From assembly GCA_032298335.1 (NCBI GenBank), contig GCA_032298335.1_4702.1: a DNA stretch of 43,865 nucleotides; one strand, written 5' to 3'. The DNA comes from a phage. The notes beneath the pieces were generated by a model that did not search any database, had not been told where the DNA came from, and saw nothing but the letters and a program-made list of their open reading frames with translations. This document shows, piece by piece, positions 2,141-43,675 of this stretch (position 1 is its first letter; the number at the start of each line of letters is the position of its first letter). A program made the position numbers and the translations under genes.

Positions 2141-3064
2141 ATGACTACTGAAAACATCCTCCTGTCTGTCCGTGAAGCTGCAACCGCTGAGATTAAGCAG
2201 CATTTGGATAATATCGGCACTTCTTACATCAAAGTTGGCGCTTGTCTGAATGAATTACGCGGTGATTTCGAAGGTCAAAAAGACTTTTTAGCTTATGTAG
2301 AATCAGAGTTCGGCATCAAGAAAGCACAATGCTACAAGCTGATGAGTGTAGCCCGTGTCTTTGAAGGAGACGAACGCTTTAAAGGTGTGGCTATGCGTGT
2401 AATGCTGGCGCTTGTTCCTTTCGCTGATGAAAATATAATCATGGAGAAGGCCGCAGAACTCGCCGCAGAGGGCAAGCTGGACACTAACGCCGTAAACGCC
2501 CTGATTGATCCTAAGAAAGAGACAAAGGCCGAGACGGTACAATCTAAGGTTGAGTCGGTAAAACCGCAGGAGAACGCGACTGAGGCCGCAGAAACTATGC
2601 AAGGACATGCAACCTTTGAGGATTTCATCTTAGAGAAGGCGAAAGAGGATTTACAAAGTGTGCCGCCAGTAAGTGAGTCGGGTAACGACGAATCCGCACC
2701 GTGGGAAGATGAAAGCAAGCCGGAAGACACAAAGGCAGCGCCACGGGATAACACGGCTAATACTGAGAATGCCGCTATTGCTGGTCTGCTGGCACAAATT
2801 AAAGCACTGACTGAGCAATTACAGGCAGCTAATGGCCGCATTGCCTCCTTAAGCAGCGCACGCGAAAGCAAGAAAGCAGCCGCGCCTATGCTGCCGCAAT
2901 TCAAATCTTCCTGCTTCTATGCTCGCTTAGGTTTAAGCGCTGAGGAGGCAACGAAGAAAACAGCAGTTAACAAGGCACGCCGCGAACTGGTTAAGCTAGG
3001 CTACGGCGAAGGCCATGAAGCATGGCCCTTAATCTCTGAGGCAGTAGAAGAATTAACTAAGTAA
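2141..3064 (+). CDS. Hypothetical early protein (307 aa)
   Basis: Long early ORF at the position T7 uses for the gp0.7 kinase, but no kinase motifs seen; ribosome-binding site AAGGTGA before the ATG at 2141 (the ORF track starts at a GTG at 2132). Confidence 0.6.
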   Translation: MTTENILLSVREAATAEIKQHLDNIGTSYIKVGACLNELRGDFEGQKDFLAYVESEFGIKKAQCYKLMSVARVFEGDERFKGVAMRVMLALVPFADENIIMEKAAELAAEGKLDTNAVNALIDPKKETKAETVQSKVESVKPQENATEAAETMQGHATFEDFILEKAKEDLQSVPPVSESGNDESAPWEDESKPEDTKAAPRDNTANTENAAIAGLLAQIKALTEQLQAANGRIASLSSARESKKAAAPMLPQFKSSCFYARLGLSAEEATKKTAVNKARRELVKLGYGEGHEAWPLISEAVEELTK

Positions 3065-3127
3065 CCTTATCGGTGGCATCTTCTTAGGTGTCACCTATTA
3101 AGGTTTCTTTCACTAGGAGTAAACAAG

Positions 3128-5755
3128 ATGCAAGACCTACACGCTATTCAACTTCAACTTGAAGAAGAAATGTTTAACGGCGGTATCCGTCGCTTTGAAG
3201 CGGACCAACAACGCCAGATTGCATCCGGTAATGAATCAGACACGGCATGGAATCGCCGCTTATTGTCCGAGTTAATCGCGCCAATGGCTGAAGGTATTCA
3301 GGCATACAAGGAAGAGTATGAAGGTAAAAGAGGCCGTGCACCGCGTGCATTAGCTTTCATTAACTGCGTAGAAAATGAAGTGGCAGCGTATATCACGATG
3401 AAAATCGTTATGGATATGCTGAACACGGATGTAACCTTGCAGGCTATAGCCATGAATGTAGCTGACCGCATTGAGGACCAAGTACGTTTTAGCAAGCTGG
3501 AAGGTCACGCCGCCAAATACTTTGAAAAAGTTAAGAAGTCACTTAAGGCAAGTAAGACTAAATCATATCGCCATGCGCACAACGTAGCGGTAGTGGCTGA
3601 GAAGTCAGTAGCTGACCGTGACGCTGATTTCTCTCGCTGGGAAGCGTGGCCTAAAGATACCTTGCTACAAATTGGGATGACCTTGCTTGAAATCTTAGAG
3701 AATAGCGTATTCTTCAACGGGCAACCTGTCTTCCTCCGCACCTTGCGCACTAATGGCGGAAAACATGGTGTTTACTACCTACAGACTAGTGAACACGTAG
3801 GTGAGTGGATAACTGCATTTAAAGAACATGTAGCGCAACTTAGTCCCGCCTATGCACCTTGCGTTATTCCTCCGCGTCCGTGGGTGTCACCCTTTAACGG
3901 TGGGTTTCATACTGAGAAAGTAGCAAGCCGTATTCGTCTGGTAAAAGGCAATCGTGAGCACGTCCGCAAGCTGACCAAAAAGCAAATGCCAGCGGTTTAC
4001 AAGGCTGTTAACGCTTTGCAGGTGACTAAGTGGCAGGTTAATAAAGAGGTTTTACAGGTTGTGGAGGACGTTATACGTCTAGACCTCGGCTATGGTGTAC
4101 CTTCCTTTAAACCACTCATCGACCGTGAGAACAAGCCAGCTAATCCGGTGCCGTTAGAGTTCCAGCACCTGCGAGGCCGTGAACTGAAAGAAATGCTTAC
4201 GCCGGAACAATGGCAAGCCTTTATCAACTGGAAAGGTGAATGTACTAAGCTGTACACCGCTGAAACTAAGCGCGGAAGCAAATCGGCGGCAACCGTTCAC
4301 ATGGTTGGTCAGGCCCGTAAATATAGCCAGTTCGACGCAATCTACTTCGTGTATGCACTGGACAGCCGCAGCCGTGTATACGCGCAATCTAGCACACTCT
4401 CACCGCAATCAAATGACTTGGGCAAGGCCTTGCTCCGTTTTACCGAAGGGCAGCGTCTTGATAGCGCTGAGGCGCTTAAGTGGTTTTTGGTGAACGGGGC
4501 TAATAACTGGGGTTGGGATAAGAAAACTTTTGACGTGCGCACTGCTAACGTGCTGGATAGTGAATTTCAAGACATGTGCCGCGACATTGCAGCGGATCCG
4601 CTGACCTTCACTCAATGGGTAAATGCCGACTCCCCTTACGGCTTCCTTGCATGGTGCTTTGAATATGCGCGTTATCTGGATGCACTGGATGAAGGCACGC
4701 AAGACCAATTCATGACGCACCTCCCAGTCCATCAAGATGGTAGTTGTTCTGGTATCCAGCACTACAGTGCTATGCTACGCGATGCAGTAGGTGCGAAAGC
4801 AGTAAACCTTAAGCCCTCTGACTCTCCTCAAGATATTTATGGTGCCGTTGCGCAGGTAGTAATTCAGAAGAATTATGCATACATGAATGCAGAGGGTGCG
4901 GAAACCTTCACTTCTGGCAGCGTGACTTTAACAGGTGCGGAACTGCGTAGTATGGCTAGTGCGTGGGATATGATAGGAATCACTCGCGGCCTGACCAAAA
5001 AGCCCGTAATGACACTACCTTATGGCAGCACACGTCTAACCTGCCGTGAGTCAGTGATTGATTATATCGTTGATTTAGAAGAAAAAGAGGCCCAACGGGC
5101 TATTGCGGAAGGGCGTACCGCCAATCCTGTACACCCTTTTGACAATGACCGTAAGGACAGCCTGACACCTAGCGCAGCTTATAACTATATGACAGCTTTA
5201 ATCTGGCCTTCTATTTCGGAAGTGGTTAAAGCTCCTATAGTGGCAATGAAAATGATTCGTCAGCTTGCACGTTTCGCAGCTAAAAGGAATGAAGGCTTAG
5301 AGTACACCTTGCCTACTGGCTTCATCTTGCAACAAAAGATAATGGCGACAGATATGCTCCGCGTATCTACTTGCTTGATGGGAGAAATCAAGATGAGTCT
5401 ACAGATTGAAACGGACGTAGTGGATGAAACGGCTATGATGGGCGCTGCTGCCCCTAACTTTGTGCACGGTCATGATGCCAGTCACCTTATCTTAACGGTC
5501 TGCGACCTTGTTGATAAAGGGATTACATCTATCGCAGTAATTCATGATTCTTTTGGCACTCATGCAGGTCGCACCGCAGACCTACGTGATAGTCTAAGGG
5601 CAGAAATGGTGAAGATGTATCAAGGCCGTAACGCTCTGCAAAGCCTGTTAGATGAGCATGAAGAACGCTGGTTAGTAGACACCGGAATCCAAGTGCCAAA
5701 GCAAGGAGAGTTTGACCTTAACGAAATCTTAGTATCTGACTATTGCTTCGCATAA
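3128..5755 (+). CDS. Single-subunit DNA-directed RNA polymerase, SP6-type
   Basis: 875 aa. Begins [32 protein letters not shown] and contains [33 protein letters not shown] and IHDSFGTHA, near-identical to SP6 RNA polymerase as recalled; T7 RNAP-family catalytic motifs present. Confidence 0.97.
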
Positions 5756-5847: not shown

Positions 5848-5868
5848 ATTTACCGGACACTATAGGAT
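5848..5868 (+). promoter_or_regulatory. Phage RNA polymerase promoter variant (ATTTACCGGACACTATAGGAT)
   Basis: Matches the window consensus ATTTACTGGACACTATAGAAG except at -11 and +3/+4. Confidence 0.6.
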
Positions 5869-6032: not shown

Positions 6033-6053
6033 ATTTACCGGACAGTATAGATA
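6033..6053 (+). promoter_or_regulatory. Phage RNA polymerase promoter variant (ATTTACCGGACAGTATAGATA)
   Basis: Promoter-like sequence with C to G at -5 and a changed +3; upstream of the gp1.1-like and primase genes. Confidence 0.5.
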
Positions 6054-6211: not shown

Positions 6212-8200
6212 ATGGCTATTATTCAGAATGTACCGTGTCCTGCCTGTCAAAAGAATGGACATGATATTACTGGCAACCATCTTATGATATTTGAGGATGG
6301 CGCTGGTTACTGTAACCGTGGTCACTTCCATGATAATGGGAAGCCTTATTACCATAAGCCAGAGGGTGGTATCGAGATAACCGAATTGCCTATTACTGGC
6401 AATATCAAATATACACCTTCTCAATTCAAAGAAATGGAGAAGGAAGGGAAGATAAGCGACCCTAAGCTACGCGCCATCGCACTTGGTGGTATGCGTATGA
6501 AAGACCGTTGGGAGGTTATGAATGAGCAAGAAAGGGCAGACCAAGAAGCAGAGTGGAAACTTGATGTTGAATGGTTCCTCACGCTTAAGCGTAAGAACCT
6601 TGTATCCCGTCACATTCGAGGTGACATCGCAGCAATGTACGATGTGCGCGTTGGACACGATGAAGAGGGAAGAGTCAACCGTCACTATTATCCACGATAT
6701 GAAAAGGGTGTGCTTGTTGGAGCAAAATGCCGGACGTTGCCGAAGGATTTTAAGTTCGGACACCTAGGTAAACTCTTTGGTATGCAAGATCTTTTCGGTA
6801 TGAATACTTTGTCTCACGTGTTAGACAAGGGGAGGCGAAAGGATTGCTTGCTTATTGTAGGCGGTGAACTTGATGCACTAGCAGCGCAGCAGATGCTCCT
6901 TGATTCTGCCAAGGGTACTAAGTGGGAAGGACAACCATATCATGTGTGGTCTGTCAACAAGGGCGAGTCTTGCCTTGAAGAGATAGTGCAGAACCGTGAG
7001 CATATCGCCCAATTCAAGAAGATTATATGGGGTTTTGATGGAGATGAGGTAGGGCAGAAGCAGAATCAGCAAGCGGCTCGCCTGTTTCCTGGCAAATCCT
7101 ATATCCTTGAATACCCCTCTGGTTGCAAAGATGCTAACAAGGCATTGATGGCTGGCAAGGCCAAAGAGTTTGTTGATGCATGGTTTAATGCCAAGTCATC
7201 TGATGAAGTCTTTGGTAGCCAGATTAAATCTATCGCATCTCAAAGGGATAAGCTCAAGGCTGCACGTCCAGAGCAAGGACTATCATGGCCTTGGCCTAAG
7301 CTGAACAAGGTAACGCTAGGTATTCGTAAGAACCAACTTATCATTGTAGGCGCAGGCTCTGGTGTAGGTAAGACTGAGTTCCTTCGTGAAGTAGTTAAGC
7401 ACCTCATTGAAGAACACGGTGAATCTGTAGGCATCATTTCTACAGAAGACCCGATGGTCAAGGTGTCCCGTGCTTTTATCGGCAAGTGGATTGATAAGCG
7501 TATTGAGTTACCGCCAACCAACGACCCTAAAGAAGACGGATACCGTGAGGTGTTCGACTACACCGAGGAAGAAGCTAACGCCGCCATTGATTATGTAGCT
7601 GATACAGGTAAGCTGTTTGTAGCTGACCTAGAGGGTGACTATTCGATGGAAAAGGTAGAGCAAACTTGCCTAGAGTTTGAGGCTATGGGCATTTCTAATA
7701 TCATCATTGATAACTTAACGGGGATTAAATTAGATGAGCGTGCTTTTGGTGGGAAGGTTGGTGCACTTGATGAATGCGTCAAGCGGATTGGTACTATCAA
7801 AGACCGACACCCGGTTACTATATTCCTTGTATCACACCTTACACGTCCTCCGGCAAACCGTACCCAACACGAAGAAGGTGGCGAAGTTATCCTTTCTGAC
7901 TTCCGAGGCTCAGGCGCTATCGGATTCTGGGCATCTTACGCCTTGGGGATTGAGCGTAATACAAGAGCTGAAACGCTTGACGAAAGGACTACCACGTACA
8001 TCTCTTGTGTCAAAGACCGCGACCAAGGAATATTTTCCGGTACTCGTATAATGCTTAAAGGTGATATTGCTACTGGTCGATTACGTGAACCAGAGCAAAG
8101 ATCTCGACCGTTTGATACTGGTGCTCCAAAAGAACAAACTGTACCAGAAGAAGTAGTGGATAAAGGAGGATTTATTGCTGACGAAGTTGAAGAGTTTTGA
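6212..8200 (+). CDS. Bifunctional DNA primase/helicase (T7 gp4-like)
   Basis: N-terminal zinc-ribbon CPACQ...CNRGHFH; Walker A GAGSGVGKTEF; helicase motifs IIIDNLTG and VSHLTRPPANRTQHEEGGEVILSDFRGSGAIG paralleling T7 gp4; acidic C-terminus ending EEF. Confidence 0.95.
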   Translation: MAIIQNVPCPACQKNGHDITGNHLMIFEDGAGYCNRGHFHDNGKPYYHKPEGGIEITELPITGNIKYTPSQFKEMEKEGKISDPKLRAIALGGMRMKDRWEVMNEQERADQEAEWKLDVEWFLTLKRKNLVSRHIRGDIAAMYDVRVGHDEEGRVNRHYYPRYEKGVLVGAKCRTLPKDFKFGHLGKLFGMQDLFGMNTLSHVLDKGRRKDCLLIVGGELDALAAQQMLLDSAKGTKWEGQPYHVWSVNKGESCLEEIVQNREHIAQFKKIIWGFDGDEVGQKQNQQAARLFPGKSYILEYPSGCKDANKALMAGKAKEFVDAWFNAKSSDEVFGSQIKSIASQRDKLKAARPEQGLSWPWPKLNKVTLGIRKNQLIIVGAGSGVGKTEFLREVVKHLIEEHGESVGIISTEDPMVKVSRAFIGKWIDKRIELPPTNDPKEDGYREVFDYTEEEANAAIDYVADTGKLFVADLEGDYSMEKVEQTCLEFEAMGISNIIIDNLTGIKLDERAFGGKVGALDECVKRIGTIKDRHPVTIFLVSHLTRPPANRTQHEEGGEVILSDFRGSGAIGFWASYALGIERNTRAETLDERTTTYISCVKDRDQGIFSGTRIMLKGDIATGRLREPEQRSRPFDTGAPKEQTVPEEVVDKGGFIADEVEEF

Positions 8201-8663
8201 GGCAGCAGGATATACCATCAAGGAGGATGGTACTATCCTTAACCCTAAAGGTGTAATACTTAAACCGAGCCAATCAGGAAGGAAATTAAAGTATTTATAT
8301 GTAAGTTGGAGACATCAAGGAAGAAGAGTAACAGAGCTTGTACACAGATTGGTTGCTAAGAAGTACATACCCAACCCACACAGTTTACCAGAAGTTCATC
8401 ATAAAGACTTTAACCCTCTTAATTGTCATAAAGACAATCTTGAATGGACAGATGGTAAGACTAATTGTGAGTATAGTTATGCAAGGGTAGAAGCTGCACT
8501 TGCACGTCATGCTACTTTATTGTCACCTGATGGCATTAAGTACGACATATTTAATGTTCGTAAATTCTGCCGCGAACATGGCCTCAATCCACCTAGTGTA
8601 TTTGAGGTGCTTAGTGGTAAACGGAAGTCACATAAAGGGTGGACTATTTACCGGACACTATAG
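8175..8663 (+). CDS. HNH homing endonuclease
   Basis: HRLVA...NP...PEVHHKDFNPLNCHKDNLEWTDGKTN HNH motif; AT-rich relative to neighbours; overlaps the helicase 3' end; paralog of the gene at 43214. Confidence 0.85.
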   Translation: MLTKLKSFEAAGYTIKEDGTILNPKGVILKPSQSGRKLKYLYVSWRHQGRRVTELVHRLVAKKYIPNPHSLPEVHHKDFNPLNCHKDNLEWTDGKTNCEYSYARVEAALARHATLLSPDGIKYDIFNVRKFCREHGLNPPSVFEVLSGKRKSHKGWTIYRTL

Positions 8664-8666
8664 AAG
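8646..8666 (+). promoter_or_regulatory. Phage RNA polymerase promoter (ATTTACCGGACACTATAGAAG)
   Basis: Near-consensus promoter; the HNH gene's TAG stop (8661-8663) ends on the predicted +1 G. Confidence 0.8.
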
Positions 8667-8776
8667 ACATTATTCGTAAGCAAGGGTTGAAGGGTCTTCA
8701 CATCTTAAATGGTGAAGAATTACTGTACCTACCTATCGTTACTGAAGAAACCTACGTGAATATCTAAGAGTTAATC

Positions 8777-8995
8777 ATGACTAAAGTATTAATTTATATG
8801 CGTGGACCTCATAAATGCTATGCAGTTGTAGCACCAAATGGTGTTAAGCCCTATAGTACTTCAAAAGGATTGGCATTAATAGGTGCTAGTAGTAGTGCAA
8901 GTTTCCAAATGGAACTTTTTGGTCATTGGACTGAATGGCAATTCCGTGAGGATTTTAAAGTCATTGGCAGCTTCATGGTGAAACATGCAGAATAA
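8777..8995 (+). CDS. Hypothetical protein (72 aa)
   Basis: ORF with no recognisable motif. Confidence 0.5.
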   Translation: MTKVLIYMRGPHKCYAVVAPNGVKPYSTSKGLALIGASSSASFQMELFGHWTEWQFREDFKVIGSFMVKHAE

Positions 8996-9008
8996 ACATA
9001 GTCTTAAA

Positions 9009-9158
9009 ATGTTCGATGGTCATGAAGACCTGCAAGCCAAGATTACTAACCAAGCCTTCCTGTTCGCACAGTTAACTATGGCTGAAGCAAAGAAGAATAG
9101 CCTGACGCGTGAACAGGTTATCAAGGAAAGTGAAGTGAAACGTAAGATTCGCAGTTGA
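9009..9158 (+). CDS. Small hypothetical protein (49 aa)
   Basis: Short ORF found by manual translation; no clear ribosome-binding site. Confidence 0.25.
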   Translation: MFDGHEDLQAKITNQAFLFAQLTMAEAKKNSLTREQVIKESEVKRKIRS

Positions 9159-9170
9159 TAAGTCAAGGGT

Positions 9171-9188
9171 TGTCTCACACGTGAGACA
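9171..9188. repeat. Palindrome variant TGTCTCACACGTGAGACA (copy 3)
   Basis: 8-bp arms identical to the 16-mer palindrome with an altered central dinucleotide; followed by a T-rich stretch. Confidence 0.8.
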
Positions 9189-9218
9189 GCCTTTCATCAT
9201 ATTGATTGGAGGTGCATT

Positions 9219-9326
9219 ATGCCACGTGATTATGATTCTGATTGGGACTATTATGACTCAATGAATCCAAAACCCGAACGTTCAGATGATTACTACGAAA
9301 CAGAGGCAATGTATGAAGACTATTAA
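9219..9326 (+). CDS. Small acidic Tyr/Asp-rich protein (35 aa)
   Basis: GGAGG ribosome-binding site 8 nt upstream; sequence MPRDYDSDWDYYDSMNPKPERSDDYYETEAMYEDY. Confidence 0.4.
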   Translation: MPRDYDSDWDYYDSMNPKPERSDDYYETEAMYEDY

Positions 9327-9462: not shown

Positions 9463-9516
9463 CACCTAATTCTTTATTAGGACTTGGTTATAGGGCTAAA
9501 TACTTTGGAGCAATCT

Positions 9517-12063
9517 ATGAAATCAATTGATTGGAAGAAGGAAGCGGAAGGGCGCATCCTAGTTATGGACGCCGAGGCGAAAGGTCTACTTGATGCTATA
9601 CGCTATGGTCATCGTGAAGACGTGCATATCATCTGCTGTATGGACCTGTTGACTACAGAGGAGTTTCTCTTCTTCGACCCGTATGAGATGCGTGACCCTG
9701 AAGCAAGAGAACGCCTGAAGGAATGGGAAGGTCATCAAGATGGTGACTTGGTTGATGGTGTTAACTTCCTGAAGCACTGTGAGGCTATTGTGTCGCAGAA
9801 CTTCCTAGGGTATGACGGTCTTCTCTTTGAGAAAGCATTCCCTGATATTTGGAAAGGCTTTAACTATACCGAGAAGCGCGGTAAGGGCAGACTCCGTGCT
9901 GACCTGTGTCCGGTGCGAGTCATGGATACGCTGGTGATGAGTCGCCTGTTAAACCCCGATAGACGCCTTCCTCCGCAAGCATATGCCAAAGGTATGGGTA
10001 ACGTCGCCCCTCACTCAATTGAGGCGCACGGCATCCGTATAGGTCGCTATAAACCGGAGAACGAGGACTGGTCTAAACTAACTGACCACATGGTTCACCG
10101 TGTACGTGAGGACGTGGCGATTGGTCGTGACTTGTTCCTCTGGCTCTTTAACGGGGAATGGATGGAGCACAAACGCCGTGGCGTGAATAAACGCACGGGC
10201 CTAGGCATTGAGACAGCCTTCCACATGGAGTCCATTGTGGCGCTGGAGATGAGCCGTCAGGCCGAGCGCGGGTTCCGTCTGGACATCGACAAGGCTTTGG
10301 CCCGATGCGAAGAATTGGACGCTAAGATTGATGAGACAGTCGCAGCGTTCCGCCCTCACATGCCTATGCGTATCAAGTCTAAACCTTTTAAACCGGAAGA
10401 AAAGAATGAAGTATGCCAACGCGCAAATGAGTATGGAGCTAGCAACAATATACCTACTGTCCTTGACCCCTCACACTTTCTTCATGCCGAGAGACGAGGA
10501 GATCGCAAGACAGTATGGAGTGTCACTACTAAGTCTGGTGATTGGTCGGCTAGTGTCAAGAAAGACTTTCCTCACCTTAGAGGAAACCGTAATGACACGC
10601 CAAGCATCAAGTGGATTGGCGCTTACTCGCCTGTTACTTTCGAAGAGATTCCCTTGGGTAACAGGGATGCAGTTAAGCAAGTGCTCTATGAGTATGGATG
10701 GAAAGGTGTTGAATTTAACGATACCGAGCAAGCTCATCTCGATGAGCACGGAGTGTTACCAAAACCTTGGAGTGGTAAGATAAATGAAAAGTCCCTCACT
10801 TTATGGCAAGAAAGAGCCGCACGTGAAGGTAAAACAGCCCCTGATTGGTGCTTGGGTATCGCTGCATGGTACATACTCGTATCCCGTCGTGGTCAGATAC
10901 TCAACCGTGGTGACGTTGAAGCCTTCAACGAGAAGGGAACGTGGCCCTCGCAGGCTGGTGTACGAAAGTGTCGCGGCCTTGTACCTGTAGCATTCAACAA
11001 GGAGCTAGGAATCAATGCGCAGCAATACTACGAGAGGTACGGATGTTGGCCTACGTCTGACAAAGATGACGGAGAGTGGCGTGTTCCAGCTGTTGCTATT
11101 AGTATTGGCACTTCTACGTTCCGTATGCGTCATCGTAACGTGGTTAATATTCCTGCCCGTGGCTTGTATCCTTTACGTGATTTATTCATAGCAGGGAAAG
11201 GCAAGCTAATCCTTGGTTGTGACGGTGCAGGTCTTGAACTGCGTGTCCTGTCTCACTTCATGAATGACCCTGAGTACCAAGAGATTGTACTGCACGGTGA
11301 TATTCATACGCATAACCAGATGAAGGCTGGTCTTCCTAAGCGTGATATGGCGAAGACGTTTATATACGCCTTCCTCTATGGTTCTGGTATAGCCAACCTT
11401 GCAGCAGTCTGCGGTGTTACTGAGGAAGAAATGAAGGAAGTTGTGGCAAGATTCGAGATTGAACTACCGTCTCTTGCACGTCTTCGTGAGAATGTTATCG
11501 CACAAGGTAACAAGTTTGGCTACCTGCAAGCACTTGATGGGCATTGGGGTCGCATCCGCATGTCTGGTGGTGAACTTAAAGAGCACACGATGCTTAACGT
11601 ATTACTCCAGATGACTGGCTCTTTGTGTATGAAATATGCATTAGTCAAGGCATTTGCAGTAATGCGCAAGGAAGGTGTAGCTTTGGATGCTATGGGAAAT
11701 CCTTGTGGTGTGGCTAACGTGCATGATGAAATCCAGATGGAAGTTCCTGAAGAGGAGGTCTTGTATCTTAACTACGACCTACCTTTCACCTTAGATGGGT
11801 TCGAAACAGAGAAGGCTGCTGTGAAAGCAGTTTTCGATGCAGAGGAGAAACGTGTTCATGTGGATTCTGAAGGACGTATGTGGTCTGCTGCAAACCTAGT
11901 TAGCGTTGATGCTGATGCTGGTGTATTGCATTGCCAGCGCCGTTATCACCGTGCAGGTCATATCATTGCCGACGCCATGACTTGGGCAGGGCAGTATCTG
12001 AAGATGCGTTGCCCGATGGCAGGAGAATATAAGATTGGCGCAAGCTGGAAGGAAACACACTGA
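9517..12063 (+). CDS. DNA polymerase, family A (T7 gp5-like)
   Basis: Motifs DGAGLELRVLSHFM, GDIHTHNQ and AKTFIYAFLYGSG match T7 DNA polymerase motifs A/B; ATG at 9517 with a ribosome-binding site (the ORF track begins at an upstream TTG at 9484). Confidence 0.95.
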   Translation: MKSIDWKKEAEGRILVMDAEAKGLLDAIRYGHREDVHIICCMDLLTTEEFLFFDPYEMRDPEARERLKEWEGHQDGDLVDGVNFLKHCEAIVSQNFLGYDGLLFEKAFPDIWKGFNYTEKRGKGRLRADLCPVRVMDTLVMSRLLNPDRRLPPQAYAKGMGNVAPHSIEAHGIRIGRYKPENEDWSKLTDHMVHRVREDVAIGRDLFLWLFNGEWMEHKRRGVNKRTGLGIETAFHMESIVALEMSRQAERGFRLDIDKALARCEELDAKIDETVAAFRPHMPMRIKSKPFKPEEKNEVCQRANEYGASNNIPTVLDPSHFLHAERRGDRKTVWSVTTKSGDWSASVKKDFPHLRGNRNDTPSIKWIGAYSPVTFEEIPLGNRDAVKQVLYEYGWKGVEFNDTEQAHLDEHGVLPKPWSGKINEKSLTLWQERAAREGKTAPDWCLGIAAWYILVSRRGQILNRGDVEAFNEKGTWPSQAGVRKCRGLVPVAFNKELGINAQQYYERYGCWPTSDKDDGEWRVPAVAISIGTSTFRMRHRNVVNIPARGLYPLRDLFIAGKGKLILGCDGAGLELRVLSHFMNDPEYQEIVLHGDIHTHNQMKAGLPKRDMAKTFIYAFLYGSGIANLAAVCGVTEEEMKEVVARFEIELPSLARLRENVIAQGNKFGYLQALDGHWGRIRMSGGELKEHTMLNVLLQMTGSLCMKYALVKAFAVMRKEGVALDAMGNPCGVANVHDEIQMEVPEEEVLYLNYDLPFTLDGFETEKAAVKAVFDAEEKRVHVDSEGRMWSAANLVSVDADAGVLHCQRRYHRAGHIIADAMTWAGQYLKMRCPMAGEYKIGASWKETH

Positions 12064-12816: not shown

Positions 12817-13116
12817 ATGATGGAAGAAGTAATTCAAGCTAAACATGTAGGTATCATTTTTCGTGATCTAGAGCAGCGTAAAGTTGCAGGTCACACTCGT
12901 CTGGCTAAAGAGGAAGACACCGCAATCACTACGGTAGAACAAGCAGATGCCTATCGTGGTCCGGAGTTCACTCAAGGTGAAACTTGTCACCAATTGAGCC
13001 TATCACTTTGTGACACTATGGCTATTGTAAATGTGCAAGAAGTCGAAGAGGGTGAGTGTGTCAGTTACATCTACCCTTTAGATACTATTGCACGCATTAA
13101 GGTAATCCATAAGTAA
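12817..13116 (+). CDS. Hypothetical protein (99 aa)
   Basis: ORF with a ribosome-binding site; no motif recognised. Confidence 0.55.
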   Translation: MMEEVIQAKHVGIIFRDLEQRKVAGHTRLAKEEDTAITTVEQADAYRGPEFTQGETCHQLSLSLCDTMAIVNVQEVEEGECVSYIYPLDTIARIKVIHK

Positions 13117-13135
13117 TTACTGGACACTATAGAAC
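13115..13135 (+). promoter_or_regulatory. Phage RNA polymerase promoter (AATTACTGGACACTATAGAAC)
   Basis: Consensus core CACTATAGAA; overlaps the upstream stop codon. Confidence 0.8.
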
Positions 13136-16085: not shown

Positions 16086-16480
16086 AATCATCTGAGGTAG
16101 CAGCTTATAAGAGGGAATTGCTAGAGAAGCAAGGATGGAAGTGCCCCCTATGTGGCGGCAGTCTCAAGGCTGTTACTCCTATAAACCGTGTACTTGACCA
16201 TGACCATGAGACAGGATTCTGCCGTGCTGTTGTATGCCGAGGCTGCAATGGTGCAGAAGGAAAGATTAAGGGTGTTATCTCTGGTTACGGTAAGGCGGGT
16301 AACAACCGTTACTTCCAGCTTCAATGGTTAGAGCGACTATATGAATACTGGAAGTTACATAGTACACCTCAGACAGATAAGTTATATCACAAACATCAAA
16401 CGGAGGCAGAGAAGCGCGAGGCTAAGAACCGTAAGGCACGCCTTGCTTATGCAAGAAAGAAGGAGGTTAAAGTTGGGTAA
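16070..16480 (+). CDS. Endonuclease VII-like Holliday-junction resolvase
   Basis: CPLCGG ... LDHDHETG ... CRGCNGAEG matches the T4 endonuclease VII zinc/catalytic signature. Confidence 0.85.
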   Translation: MVSKLKSSEVAAYKRELLEKQGWKCPLCGGSLKAVTPINRVLDHDHETGFCRAVVCRGCNGAEGKIKGVISGYGKAGNNRYFQLQWLERLYEYWKLHSTPQTDKLYHKHQTEAEKREAKNRKARLAYARKKEVKVG

Positions 16481-17480
16481 GCTTCGCAGCTTGTACAAAG
16501 ACTCCGAGGTACTTGATGCAATCGAGCAAGCTACCGACGAGAAAGGTAATGTTAATTACAATGAGATGGCACGTGTATTATCGTGTCACCCTGTGGGTAA
16601 GAAGATTACCCGCCAGTTGGCTCGATACTGGCATGGTCAATTCAAGAAGACCAAGAAGAATGGTGATTATTACCAGACCCTTCTGCAAGAAGATAAGCGT
16701 ATCAAAGAAGAGCGTAAGCTCAGGACTCCTGACCGCTACGAGGATTTGGCTATTGTACCATTGCCTGACTCACCTCATCGAAGTGTACTGGTAATCCCTG
16801 ATACTCATGCACCTTATGAGCATCCAGATACCTTAGAGTTCCTTGCAGCAGTCGCGGCACGTTACCGTCCAGACACAGTGGTACACCTAGGAGATGAGGC
16901 AGACAAACATGCCTTGTCATTCCACGATTCGGACCCAAATCTGGATAGTGCTGGCATGGAGTTAGAGAAGGCTCGTATCTTCATGCACAAATTGCACAAG
17001 ATGTTCCCTGTGATGCGCCTGTGTCACTCCAACCACGGCTCTATGCACTTCCGTAAGGCAAGCGCCAAGGGCATCCCTGTGCAATACCTGCGCACCTACC
17101 GTGAAGTCTTTTTCCCAAATGGAGGTGGCGACCAGTGGGGTTGGCAGCATACACATGTTCTTGAGTTGCCGAATGGTGAACAAGTGGCATTCAAGCATCA
17201 ACCTGCTGGCTCTGTCCTAGCAGATGCAGCGCATGAGCGTATGAACCTTGTGTGTGGTCACTTGCACGGTAAGATGTCTGTGGAGTACGCACGTAATACA
17301 CATGAACAGTATTGGGCTGTGCAAGGTGGCTGCTTAATTGATGAGTCATCCCGTGCATTTGCCTATGGGCGTGAGTCTAAATACAAGCCAGCATTAGGTT
17401 GTGTGGTTATTCTGGAGGGTGTACCTCATATTGTCCCGATGCAAACCAATAGCGACAACCGTTGGATTGGCAAGATTTAG
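16449..17480 (+). CDS. Calcineurin-like metallophosphoesterase
   Basis: Ordered motifs DTH (in VIPDTHAPY), GDEAD, SNHG and CGHLHG follow the DxH / GDxxD / GNH / GHxH pattern. Start is uncertain: ATG at 16449, or TTG at 16473 with an AGGAGG ribosome-binding site. Confidence 0.75.
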   Translation: MQERRRLKLGKLRSLYKDSEVLDAIEQATDEKGNVNYNEMARVLSCHPVGKKITRQLARYWHGQFKKTKKNGDYYQTLLQEDKRIKEERKLRTPDRYEDLAIVPLPDSPHRSVLVIPDTHAPYEHPDTLEFLAAVAARYRPDTVVHLGDEADKHALSFHDSDPNLDSAGMELEKARIFMHKLHKMFPVMRLCHSNHGSMHFRKASAKGIPVQYLRTYREVFFPNGGGDQWGWQHTHVLELPNGEQVAFKHQPAGSVLADAAHERMNLVCGHLHGKMSVEYARNTHEQYWAVQGGCLIDESSRAFAYGRESKYKPALGCVVILEGVPHIVPMQTNSDNRWIGKI

Positions 17481-17495
17481 TTGACACTATAGAAC
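17475..17495 (+). promoter_or_regulatory. Phage RNA polymerase promoter variant (ATTTAGTTGACACTATAGAAC)
   Basis: Closer to the SP6 form (ATTTAGGTGACACTATAGAAG); overlaps the phosphoesterase stop codon. Confidence 0.7.
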
Positions 17496-35659: not shown

Positions 35660-37557
35660 TGGCTAAGGCAAGAGAATCACAAGCGGAGGCTCTTGCCAGA
35701 TGGGAGATGCTACAGGAGTTACAGCAGACCTTTCCTTTCACAGCGGAAGGTTTGCTTCTCTTTGCAGATACAGTTATTCATAACTTAATTGCAGGCAACC
35801 CTCATCTGATTCGTATGCAGGCGGATATCTTGAAGTTCCTATTTTACGGACACAAGTACCGCCTCATCGAAGCGCCTCGTGGTATCGCTAAGACAACACT
35901 ATCAGCAATCTATACGGTATTCCGTATTATTCATGAACCGCATAAGCGTATCATGGTTGTGTCCCAAAACGCCAAGCGAGCAGAGGAAATCGCAGGTTGG
36001 GTAGTTAAAATCTTCCGTGGCTTAGACTTTCTTGAGTTTATGCTGCCGGATATCTACGCTGGGGACCGTGCATCCGTTAAGGCGTTTGAGATTCATTACA
36101 CCCTACGTGGTAGTGATAAGTCTCCTTCTGTATCCTGTTACTCAATCCAAGCAAGTATGCAGGGTGCTCGTGCTGATATTATTCTAGCGGATGACGTAGA
36201 GTCGATGCAGAATGCTCGTACGGCAGCGGGCCGTGCCTTGCTTGAGGAACTGACTAAGGAGTTTGAATCTATCAACCAGTTTGGGGATATCATTTACCTT
36301 GGTACACCTCAGAACGTAAACTCTATCTACAACAACCTACCTGCTCGTGGTTACTCTGTTCGTATCTGGACTGCGCGTTACCCTTCAGTAGAGCAAGAGC
36401 AATGTTATGGCGACTTCCTTGCACCTATGATTGTGCAGAATATGAAGGACAACCCAGCACTGCGCTCAGGGTACGGGTTGGATGGTAATAGTGGTGCACC
36501 TTGTGCCCCTGAAATGTATGATGATGAAGTCCTGATTGAGAAGGAAATCTCTCAGGGTGCTGCTAAGTTCCAGCTTCAGTTCATGCTTAACACTCGCATG
36601 ATGGATGCTGACAGATACCCATTACGCCTGAACAATCTAATCTTCACCTCGTTTGGTACAGAGGAAGTCCCTGTGATGCCTACGTGGAGTAATGATTCCA
36701 TAAACATCATTGGTGATGCACCTAAGTATGGTAACAAGCCTACGGATTTCATGTACAGACCTGTAGCTCGCCCATACGAATGGGGTACTGTCTCCCGCAA
36801 GATTATGTATATTGACCCTGCGGGTGGCGGTAAGAATGGGGATGAGACGGGTGTGGCTATCGTATTCCTGCACGGCACATTCATTTACGTGTATCAGTGC
36901 TTCGGTGTGCCGGGTGGATACCGCGAATCGTCCCTGAATCGCATTGTGCAGGCCGCAAAGCAGGCGGGTGTTAAAGAGGTATTCATTGAGAAGAACTTTG
37001 GTCATGGCGCGTTTGAGGCGGTAATTAAGCCGTACTTTGAACGAGAGTGGCCTGTAACGCTGGAAGAGGATTACGCCACCGGACAGAAAGAGTTGCGTAT
37101 CATTGAGACGCTGGAGCCGCTCATGGCAGCCCATAGGCTTATCTTCAATGCAGAGATGGTGAAGTCAGACTTTGAGTCGGTACAGCACTATCCGCTTGAA
37201 CTACGCATGTCCTACAGTCTTTTCAATCAAATGTCGAACATAACGATTGAGAAGAACAGCCTCCGGCACGATGACCGCCTAGACGCCCTGTATGGCGCTA
37301 TACGGCAATTAACTTCTCAGATAGACTATGACGAGGTTACACGGATTAATCGCCTCAGAGCGCAGGAGATGCGAGATTACATCCATGCTATGAACACACC
37401 TCATCTACGCAGGGCAATGCTATATGGGGATTACGGTACTGAGCGAAGAGTGACCAACACTTCCGTAGCGATGCAGCAGCGAGTTTACGGGCAGAACTAC
37501 CGAAATAAATCGGCAAGCAGAAATACACTTTCTGCAAGGATTTCAAGGACTTATTAA
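35659..37557 (+). CDS. Terminase large subunit (gp19-like)
   Basis: 632 aa; ATPase N-terminal half and nuclease C-terminal half expected from size and position; ATG overlaps the small-subunit stop. Confidence 0.9.
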   Translation: MAKARESQAEALARWEMLQELQQTFPFTAEGLLLFADTVIHNLIAGNPHLIRMQADILKFLFYGHKYRLIEAPRGIAKTTLSAIYTVFRIIHEPHKRIMVVSQNAKRAEEIAGWVVKIFRGLDFLEFMLPDIYAGDRASVKAFEIHYTLRGSDKSPSVSCYSIQASMQGARADIILADDVESMQNARTAAGRALLEELTKEFESINQFGDIIYLGTPQNVNSIYNNLPARGYSVRIWTARYPSVEQEQCYGDFLAPMIVQNMKDNPALRSGYGLDGNSGAPCAPEMYDDEVLIEKEISQGAAKFQLQFMLNTRMMDADRYPLRLNNLIFTSFGTEEVPVMPTWSNDSINIIGDAPKYGNKPTDFMYRPVARPYEWGTVSRKIMYIDPAGGGKNGDETGVAIVFLHGTFIYVYQCFGVPGGYRESSLNRIVQAAKQAGVKEVFIEKNFGHGAFEAVIKPYFEREWPVTLEEDYATGQKELRIIETLEPLMAAHRLIFNAEMVKSDFESVQHYPLELRMSYSLFNQMSNITIEKNSLRHDDRLDALYGAIRQLTSQIDYDEVTRINRLRAQEMRDYIHAMNTPHLRRAMLYGDYGTERRVTNTSVAMQQRVYGQNYRNKSASRNTLSARISRTY

Positions 37558-37576
37558 TTACTGGACACTATAGAAG
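37556..37576 (+). promoter_or_regulatory. Phage RNA polymerase promoter after the terminase gene
   Basis: AATTACTGGACACTATAGAAG; overlaps the terminase stop. Confidence 0.85.
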
Positions 37577-43187: not shown

Positions 43188-43213
43188 GCAGGTTAATATC
43201 TTAGGAGGTAATT

Positions 43214-43675
43214 ATGGAAGTTTGGAGGCCTATTGCTGGTATACCAGATTACATGGTTTCCTCCTTTGGTCGTGTTAGATCTCATAAAAGAGGTAAGGTT
43301 ACTATACTAAACCCTCCGCACGACAAAGGGGGTTATCGTAATGTTGTGCTACGTGTTAATGGTGAAAAGATAAATCGCAAGGTACATAGGCTTGTGGCAG
43401 AGGCTTTCTTACCTAATCCTCACGGTTTACCTCAAGTAAATCACAAGGATGAAGTAAGAGACAATAATCATGTAAGTAATCTGGAGTGGTGTGATTGTGC
43501 ATACAACGTAGATTACTCTCAAGCAGCTACTTATACTGTGATGTGCCCTAAAGGTAATATCTTAGTAGTAAGGAATGTGGCTAAGTTTTGTAGGGAAAAC
43601 GGATTAAGCAGTGGTTCTTTTACAGATATGCTTAAGGGGAGACGTAAGCAACATAAGGGTTATCGCTTAGTGTAA
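43214..43675 (+). CDS. HNH homing endonuclease (second copy)
   Basis: HRLVAEAF ... NP ... PQVNHKD ... NLEW HNH motif; C-terminal FCRENGL ... KG(R)RKQHKG block shared with the 8175-8663 protein; AT-rich. Confidence 0.85.
   Translation: MEVWRPIAGIPDYMVSSFGRVRSHKRGKVTILNPPHDKGGYRNVVLRVNGEKINRKVHRLVAEAFLPNPHGLPQVNHKDEVRDNNHVSNLEWCDCAYNVDYSQAATYTVMCPKGNILVVRNVAKFCRENGLSSGSFTDMLKGRRKQHKGYRLV

Follow-up and report, generated by a model that had tools for sequence, protein, structure and literature searches.

The stretch of DNA analysed here, referred to throughout as the window, is a phage contig of 43,865 nucleotides (nt) (GCA_032298335.1_4702.1, assembly GCA_032298335.1) that belongs to a K1E/K1-5-like podophage (Vectrevirus, Autographiviridae). 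Its open reading frame (ORF) list and Pfam matches identify a single-subunit RNA polymerase gene (3128–5755), a primase/helicase gene and a DNA polymerase gene (9484–12063), and at the 3′ end of the helicase gene a short ORF encodes an I-HmuI-like HNH endonuclease whose boundaries with the helicase, on one side, and with a phage promoter, on the other, are the subject of this work (Table 1). The HNH ORF opens on a TTG codon, there being no in-frame ATG, preceded at 5 nt by a ribosome-binding site embedded in helicase coding sequence. A first, sequence-only reading of the window had this ORF beginning within the helicase 3′ end, as it does, with an overlap of 26 nt, and ending at 8669, which overshoots by 6 nt the true end marked by a TAG stop codon at 8661–8663. 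The position of the start is kept in 10 orthologs, as TTG, ATG or GTG, and an A/G-rich, Shine-Dalgarno-like stretch precedes it in all of them, with an exact GGAGG in several.

Table 1. Features of the helicase–HNH locus and other promoter-overlapping gene ends, in window coordinates (aa, amino acids).
Feature	Position	Strand	Basis
Primase/helicase gene, K1E gp9 homolog, 662 aa	6212–8200	+	ORF list; Pfam DnaB_C (E = 1.8e-14), Toprim_2; relatives annotated primase/helicase
Diverged helicase segment inherited with HNH, 121 nt	8028–8148	+	Identity drop versus UKE1
Insertion start; substitute helicase tail (E)EVVDKGGFIADEVEEF plus stop, in place of ancestral DLPDTIEETNFDEESEF plus stop	8149–8200	+	Alignment of occupied and empty sites
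HNH ribosome-binding site GGAGG	8165–8169	+	Sequence reading
I-HmuI-like HNH endonuclease ORF, 162 aa	8175–8663	+	ORF list, Pfam, PHROG, PDB, fold, homologs
Dual-coded 26 nt; helicase frame ...IADEVEEF plus stop, HNH frame MLTKLKSFE	8175–8200	+	Same overlap in 10 of 10 HNH-bearing loci, three clades
Resident phage RNA polymerase promoter ATTTACCGGACACTATAGAAG, also HNH codons 157–162 (IYRTL) plus stop codon	8646–8666	+	Zero mismatches to motif
Deletion junction; GACACTATAGAAGA repeat common to promoter and promoter-like sequence near gene 10 3′ end	8654–8667	+	Alignment
Gene 10 remnant (K1E gp10, 227 aa, unknown function), last ~40 codons	8668–8767	+	tblastn
gp10.5 homolog, 72 aa, now first intact gene 3′ of promoter	8777–8995	+	ORF list; PHROG 9214 (E = 9e-47); K1E annotation
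ORF ending at 13116; TAA stop overlaps first promoter bases	promoter 13115–13135		
ORF 16332–17480; stops at TAG of ATTTAG	promoter 17475–17495		
ORF ending at 37557; TAA stop overlaps first promoter bases	promoter 37556–37576		

The HNH protein matches PHROG 59 ("HNH endonuclease") with E = 1e-30 and, over residues 40–158, the SPO1 intron endonuclease I-HmuI (PDB 1U3E, E = 2.7e-9). Its AlphaFold2 model reaches a predicted local distance difference test (pLDDT) score of 85.6, and a Foldseek search of this model against the PDB returns 1U3E over its full length as the sole significant match (E = 3.5e-11, probability 1.00, 163 aligned columns), with a template modelling score of 0.47 that is low as expected for an elongated multi-domain protein. 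I-HmuI residues D74, H75, N87 and N96 align to H75, H76, N88 and N97, of which H76, N88 and N97 are invariant among 28 homologs, the HNH motif being VHHKDFNPLNCHKDNLEWTDGKTN. The roles of these residues (a catalytic His, and metal-binding or structural Asn) are those reported for I-HmuI by Shen and colleagues in 2004, and on this alignment His76 is the putative catalytic residue, acting with Asn88 and Asn97. The C-terminal helix-turn-helix ends in HKGWTI; the homology to I-HmuI stops at HKGWT(I/F), and model confidence falls at residues 161–162 (mean pLDDT 54). The ratio of nonsynonymous to synonymous divergence (dN/dS) ranges from 0.04 to 0.25 over the 10 orthologs, and the protein is therefore maintained by purifying selection. 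An identical protein is present in NCBI, annotated as "TPA: HNH endonuclease".

The last six codons of the HNH ORF (ATT TAC CGG ACA CTA TAG, 8646–8663) had been recognized as promoter sequence, and they do match ATTTACYGGACACTATAGAAG, a motif with nine copies at three or fewer mismatches in the window, every one of them on the + strand, where chance would give 0.01; its GACA[CG]TATAG core occurs 11 times. Under the SP6 convention, which places +1 at the G after TATA, +1 would fall on 8663, the last base of the stop codon, in agreement with the earlier placement. Differences between this promoter and the SP6 consensus, ATTTAGGTGACACTATAGAAG, are confined to the specificity region, and SP6 has been reported to carry 12 such promoters (PMC11880802). 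Compared with SP6/K1E-type promoters it is ordinary in itself, and what is notable is its position, ancestrally inside the helicase ORF and now inside the HNH ORF. Between 7900 and 9300, host-type promoters and intrinsic terminators do not rise above chance.

Gene ends that overlap promoters are a common habit of the window genome: three further ORFs have stop codons overlapping one (Table 1). This habit, together with the fact that transcripts beginning at the 8646–8666 promoter exclude the HNH gene in the window, agrees with a view of the overlap as a chance by-product of a compact genome, the ORF perhaps not being expressed at all. We consider such a view scarcely credible, given the strong ribosome-binding site, the conserved start, the dN/dS well below 1 and a junction at which all intact orthologs examined have GW(T/H)(I/V) followed by the promoter, whichever of the three promoter types it is. 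As a separate matter, the three left-most promoters of the window (5848–5868, 6033–6053 and 8646–8666) carry ACCGG at −13 to −9 and those from 12346 onward ACTGG or variants, a difference that suggests two promoter classes.

The comparison with insertion-free relatives that the sequence-only reading had proposed defines the empty site in seven phages (UKE1, VEc3, K1E, K1-5, P433.1, SP6 and Kenya-K30). HNH-less phages have the promoter within the helicase ORF, in which it reads (D/E)L(P/G)DTIEE, and their helicase ends in VPDLPDTIEETNFDEESEF before its stop codon (VPDELGDTIEENTQEFNG in SP6), a tail that is short, acidic and closed by a Phe (EF); P433.1 has an intact gene 10 at this same locus. 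When occupied and empty sites are aligned, homology is lost after the VP(D/E) codons (GTACCnGA) and regained at the promoter, (A)TTTACCGG, which delimits a minimal insertion of about 497 nt (8149–8645). The proposed insertion of an HNH homing-endonuclease-type gene at the helicase 3′ end, beside the promoter, is thus supported by empty sites in most relatives. The promoter, which had been described as preserved downstream, does adjoin the insertion, but it was ancestrally part of the helicase coding sequence.

The helicase C-terminal tail, likewise believed to have been preserved, was instead cut off and a new one put in its place. Across occupied genomes this substitute tail spans 14–17 aa (17 in the window), is acidic and ends in EF followed by a stop codon; in another frame, these nucleotides also serve as ribosome-binding site, start codon and N-terminus of HNH. 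The old tail persists as a non-coding remnant 3′ of the promoter in most HNH-bearing relatives, across nine lineages (L001, L005, L006, L094, L095, L096, L101, L104 and L109), and in L094 the remnant is identical to the functional tail of UKE1. In T7, the acidic C-terminal tail of the gp4 helicase binds basic patches on the polymerase, and removal of 17 tail residues reduces processivity from 17 kb to about 5 kb (PMC12593628); because the tail binds DNA polymerase and its loss cuts processivity, an insertion at this point would need to supply a substitute. A group I intron-encoded endonuclease was also considered for this locus and ruled out: no Rfam family matches 7600–9300 at E values up to 1, the helicase has its own in-frame stop codon at 8198–8200, and the old tail lies behind the HNH gene.

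Presence in all relatives had been named in advance as the finding that would speak for an ancestral gene rather than an insertion. Orthologs with at least 75% aa identity were found in eight of about 105 related phage records (about 8%), and eight further metagenomic lineages carry HNH, always at the helicase end; a search of IMG/VR for more occupied sites returned BP12B itself only. The same-site orthologs, with 75–90% aa identity, fall in three clades that differ in how the HNH ORF terminates. In Vectrevirus the protein ends in GWTIYRTL, running through ATTTACCGGACACTATAG; in the Salmonella BP12B lineage (Zindervirus) it ends in GWTI, the stop codon being the TAG of the promoter ATTTAGGTGACACTATAG; and in an uncultured clade represented by L101 it ends in GWHI, at the TAA of the promoter ATTTAAGGGCTACTATAG. 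The stop codon hence occupies −2 to +1 in the window and −14 to −12, four codons earlier, in the two other clades. Three promoter types at one junction, with differing stop positions, indicate that the promoter is resident and that no stop codon belongs to the element itself; YRTL is an accidental extension, owed to the K1E-type promoter.

Occupation of the same site in three clades, with a divergence like that of the helicase (72–80% nt identity) and saturated synonymous divergence (dS) between clades, would also be expected if HNH had been ancestral to the SP6/K1E-like phages and deleted in most lineages, with nothing ever inserted. The remnants described above make this a very unlikely history: HNH-bearing genomes keep an undecayed old tail after the promoter, in frame with the DTIEE reading, and a precise loss of HNH would need to rebuild exactly that helicase end. 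An empty-type arrangement is also seen in the more distant helicase of Era103, presence and absence of HNH differ between backbones that are 97–100% identical up to a sharp breakpoint, and HNH alleles within Vectrevirus appear incongruent with the backbone.

That breakpoint lies upstream of the insertion itself. The window is 97–100% identical to the HNH-less UKE1 from 7100 to ~8028 and then falls to ~60%, whereas three HNH-bearing genomes (L094, L104 and L005) maintain 95–100% identity to the window beyond ~8028. Between HNH-bearing and HNH-less alleles of Vectrevirus, identity is 93.4% in 7421–8027 and 58.7% in 8028–8148. HNH is thus inherited together with the ~40 helicase codons that precede the insertion, and the last ~57 codons of the gene, tail included, are part of an HNH-linked haplotype. 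The 8028–8148 segment would be either a co-converted or a target-immune flank.

The HNH gene is also a mosaic. The window shares a near-identical backbone with L094 up to ~8028, yet their HNH genes differ with a dS of 0.54, and the window HNH gene is mosaic against those of L104 and L095. Within Vectrevirus, HNH dS values range from 0.5 to 0.9, and they are saturated between clades. The insertion had been considered recent; this holds for the window backbone, 97–100% identical to an HNH-less phage, but not for the element, which judged by its dS of 0.5–0.9 to saturated is old and diverse, the event in the window backbone being a recent arrival or exchange. The closest relative of the 5′ part of the window HNH gene is the L104 copy (3001–3519), whose first ~245 nt, taken in 60-nt blocks, show 92–98% nt identity; in the comparison of this copy, P0014 reaches 97% aa identity across 59% of the query. 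The L104 gene has a 2-nt insertion in an A-run that shifts its frame after WTDGK, and is either a decaying copy or an assembly error.

The pattern of inheritance bears on what the gene does for the phage. A nuclease retained for some function other than homing, such as competitor exclusion or DNA processing, or a passenger close to inert that spreads solely through ordinary recombination at the promoter, would be in keeping with the strong purifying selection, with conserved promoter and helicase flanks that are natural crossover points able to shuffle the cassette, and with a frameshift in L104 that makes the gene apparently dispensable. We regard this as unlikely, if less so than an ancestral HNH gene: only ~8% of relatives carry the gene, so that it is not needed for growth; a linked, diverged flank (58.7% versus 93.4% identity) is expected from a cleavage-repair drive with target immunity and not from neutral recombination; and the closest solved relative, I-HmuI, is a proven homing enzyme that effects marker exclusion, reportedly in work by Goodrich-Blair and Shub in 1996 and Shen and colleagues in 2004.

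The interpretation that best accommodates these observations, to which we assign a probability of about three in four, is that an I-HmuI-type, free-standing homing endonuclease gene, ORF 8175–8663, has invaded the helicase 3′ end of SP6/K1E-like phages (Molineuxvirinae). Its presence is sporadic, it occupies one conserved site with identifiable empty counterparts, its phylogeny is discordant with that of the backbone, and its recombination boundaries are sharp. By analogy with I-HmuI/I-HmuII and with T4 SegG/MobE, in a mixed infection the enzyme would nick or cut the helicase 3′ end of the HNH-less genome, and repair templated by the HNH-bearing one would transfer HNH along with the new tail and the resistant flank. 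Opportunities for co-infection exist, since a single host strain served for the isolation of the HNH-bearing ULINTec6 and of the HNH-less ULINTec4 and ULINTec7. Transcription of the gene would come only from read-through of the promoters at 5848 and 6033, upstream of the helicase, and translation would proceed at a low level from the TTG codon, possibly coupled to helicase termination, while the promoter at the HNH end would still drive the downstream genes.

Several known systems provide precedents for this arrangement. I-HmuI, I-HmuII and I-BasI, the HNH nicking enzymes of the Bacillus phages SPO1, SP82 and Bastille, belong to the same protein family as the window HNH and share with it the domain order (an N-terminal beta-sheet DNA-binding region, the HNH motif and a C-terminal NUMOD-like helix-turn-helix) and a similar genetic signature, with a replication gene as target and flanking markers that are inherited along with the endonuclease gene; 1U3E is the sole significant match of the window protein in sequence as well as in fold. 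These enzymes, however, reside inside self-splicing group I introns of the DNA polymerase gene, whereas the window HNH is free-standing and intronless; it interrupts the last 17 codons of the helicase and makes up for this by a substitute tail, where the intron-borne enzymes rely on splicing. In being free-standing it resembles SegF, SegG and MobE of T4-like phages, the basis of the intronless homing model (PMC2988022, PMC2790892), which are also free-standing, located between or at the ends of conserved genes, sporadically distributed and expressed by read-through, with a weak start codon. The linked diverged flank fits the cleavage of a neighbouring gene followed by co-conversion, as for these free-standing T4-like endonucleases (PMC2988022, PMC2790892). 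The T4 examples are intergenic, in contrast to the window HNH gene, which occupies the coding end of an essential gene, shares dual-coded nucleotides with it and lacks its own stop. A location within a coding region is also seen in split-gene insertions, namely mobE in nrdA of Aeromonas phage Aeh1, reportedly described by Friedrich and colleagues in 2007, and the split nrdD gene of Felix O1-like phages (PMC4837284). There too host function is kept by sequences that arrive with the insertion or adapt to it, but both fragments of Aeh1 nrdA and Felix O1-like nrdD are translated and reassemble, whereas at the helicase end the old tail is discarded and the element brings a new one.

A number of points weigh against the homing interpretation or parts of it. 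The nuclease activity, target site and biased inheritance of the window protein and its orthologs are putative, and a literature search that covered the element, mapped K1E promoters and deletions between direct repeats in T7 yielded background only, with no paper on the protein or its orthologs. The Pfam matches to HNH_3 (PF13392, 20.9 bits) and to the I-HmuI NUMOD-like domain (PF22083, 20.1 bits) fall under their curated cut-offs of 24.8 and 27, although they are outweighed by the stronger PHROG 59 and PDB 1U3E matches. Between clades HNH is roughly as diverged as the backbone, and long vertical inheritance with occasional transfer fits the data as well as frequent homing does. An unknown donor sequence, rather than target immunity, could account for the diverged flank, and the +1 position is assigned by analogy with SP6. 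Two further objections concern the deletion described below: its link with HNH rests on two events, and a repeat of 14–22 nt could cause an assembly collapse in a single contig, which is unlikely; an analogous deletion appears in five assemblies of the BP12B lineage.

The earlier reading of the flanks had omitted this deletion, which lies immediately 3′ of the HNH gene and was found here by alignment to relatives. The window aligns from 7000 to 8667 through the promoter of PDP21P3 or L094, and from 8646 onward to a repeat internal to gene 10 that lies 887 nt (PDP21P3) or 691 nt (L094) further on, so that about 0.7–0.9 kb of DNA is missing from the window. The promoter-like sequence of gene 10 contains CATTTTGCCGACACTATAGAAGR, and recombination between the promoter and this 14-nt promoter-like repeat removed the intervening DNA. 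Lost with it were 187 of the 227 codons of gp10, a hairpin, the remnant of the old tail and, in genomes that have it, gp9.5. In a tblastn search, gp10 residues 188–227 match window positions 8645–8764 at 87.5% identity. The gp10 protein corresponds to PHROG 6703, of unknown function, and is found in 74 of 88 related records. An ORF at 8639–8767 (42 aa) was rejected as a gene, being the tail of gene 10 joined to promoter sequence and having no proper ribosome-binding site.

The window junction was found nowhere else in 50,697 phage records, IMG/VR or JGI metagenomes; the deletion is accordingly rare, and its absence elsewhere neither strengthens nor refutes the idea of a permissive deletion set out here. 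An analogous deletion, from an SP6-type promoter to a gene-11-internal GTGACACTATAGGTG, occurs in the five assemblies of the BP12B lineage (2985–3070 in L004, which is BP12B), and its Zindervirus-specific right flanks make it an event independent of the one in the window. In both the window and the BP12B lineage, the gene following the helicase (K1E gp10, SP6 gene 11) was deleted through recombination of the helicase-end promoter with a conserved promoter-like sequence internal to that gene, and the two recombining sequences share a frame in which each reads DTI(E/G). The same deletion in an HNH-less genome would fuse the helicase in frame to the C-terminus of gp10, with loss of the acidic EF tail. 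In an HNH-bearing genome the tail has already been moved upstream of HNH, and we propose, from the two events, that the HNH insertion thereby makes the gene 10 deletion tolerable. The deletion may alternatively have been stimulated by a break or have arisen by chance. Compensation for genome size was rejected as a necessity, HNH-bearing relatives without the deletion measuring 44.4–45.9 kb. A hairpin copy 3′ of the helicase in relatives is removed by the window deletion; other copies of this GC-rich, GGGCTTGTCTCACACGTGAGACAGGCTC-like hairpin stand at 9163–9192 in the window and at 1114–1143 in L002, recurring after several early genes, and the conserved hairpin may be an RNase III site or a terminator.

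A more detailed account of the locus is offered tentatively, as a possibility that falls short of being probable. The cassette would be adapted to a promoter situated in the end of an essential gene, with a replacement gene end dual-coded with its own start and with the promoter serving as both 3′ boundary and stop codon, which would allow it to move between genera of differing RNA polymerase specificity. Its arrival would have uncoupled the promoter from the helicase end and opened the way to the loss of gp9.5/gp10, independently at least twice, and the linked, hypervariable flank would record an arms race of HNH variants with target immunity. The literature searched holds no description of a substitute dual-coded tail, a promoter-supplied stop or a permissive deletion of this kind, and all three are variations on a known theme and not a new kind of system.

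On the homing interpretation, the locus exemplifies the low cost at which a selfish nuclease gene can settle inside the end of an essential coding sequence, through a substitute tail and the reuse of host signals. K1E/SP6-like phages serve in therapy directed at E. coli K1 and Salmonella and also supply RNA polymerases, and in these phages the HNH locus marks a recombination boundary. Natural pairs of HNH-bearing and HNH-less phages on the same host offer material for studying homing and marker exclusion in the T7 supergroup, and also bear on how much sequence freedom the polymerase-binding tail of the helicase enjoys. The deletion, for its part, shows that gp9.5 and gp10 are dispensable.

Other HNH genes are associated with these genomes. 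A second I-HmuI-like HNH ORF of the window, near its right end (43205–43675, + strand, 156 codons from stop to stop), is 42% identical to the 8175–8663 protein, and the relatives G9 and LL11 have an HNH gene at a similar position. In ULINTec6 (L001, 1–1092) the primase/helicase gene is further interrupted upstream by another HNH gene, annotated as "Phage intron", and just the C-terminal 266 codons are annotated as helicase. In Era103 (L007, 2504–2989) a distant HNH gene with 34% identity starts at the helicase stop codon (TAATG) of a helicase that keeps its empty-type tail, ELPPSIEEEE...EF, and may represent a separate invasion of a neighbouring site.

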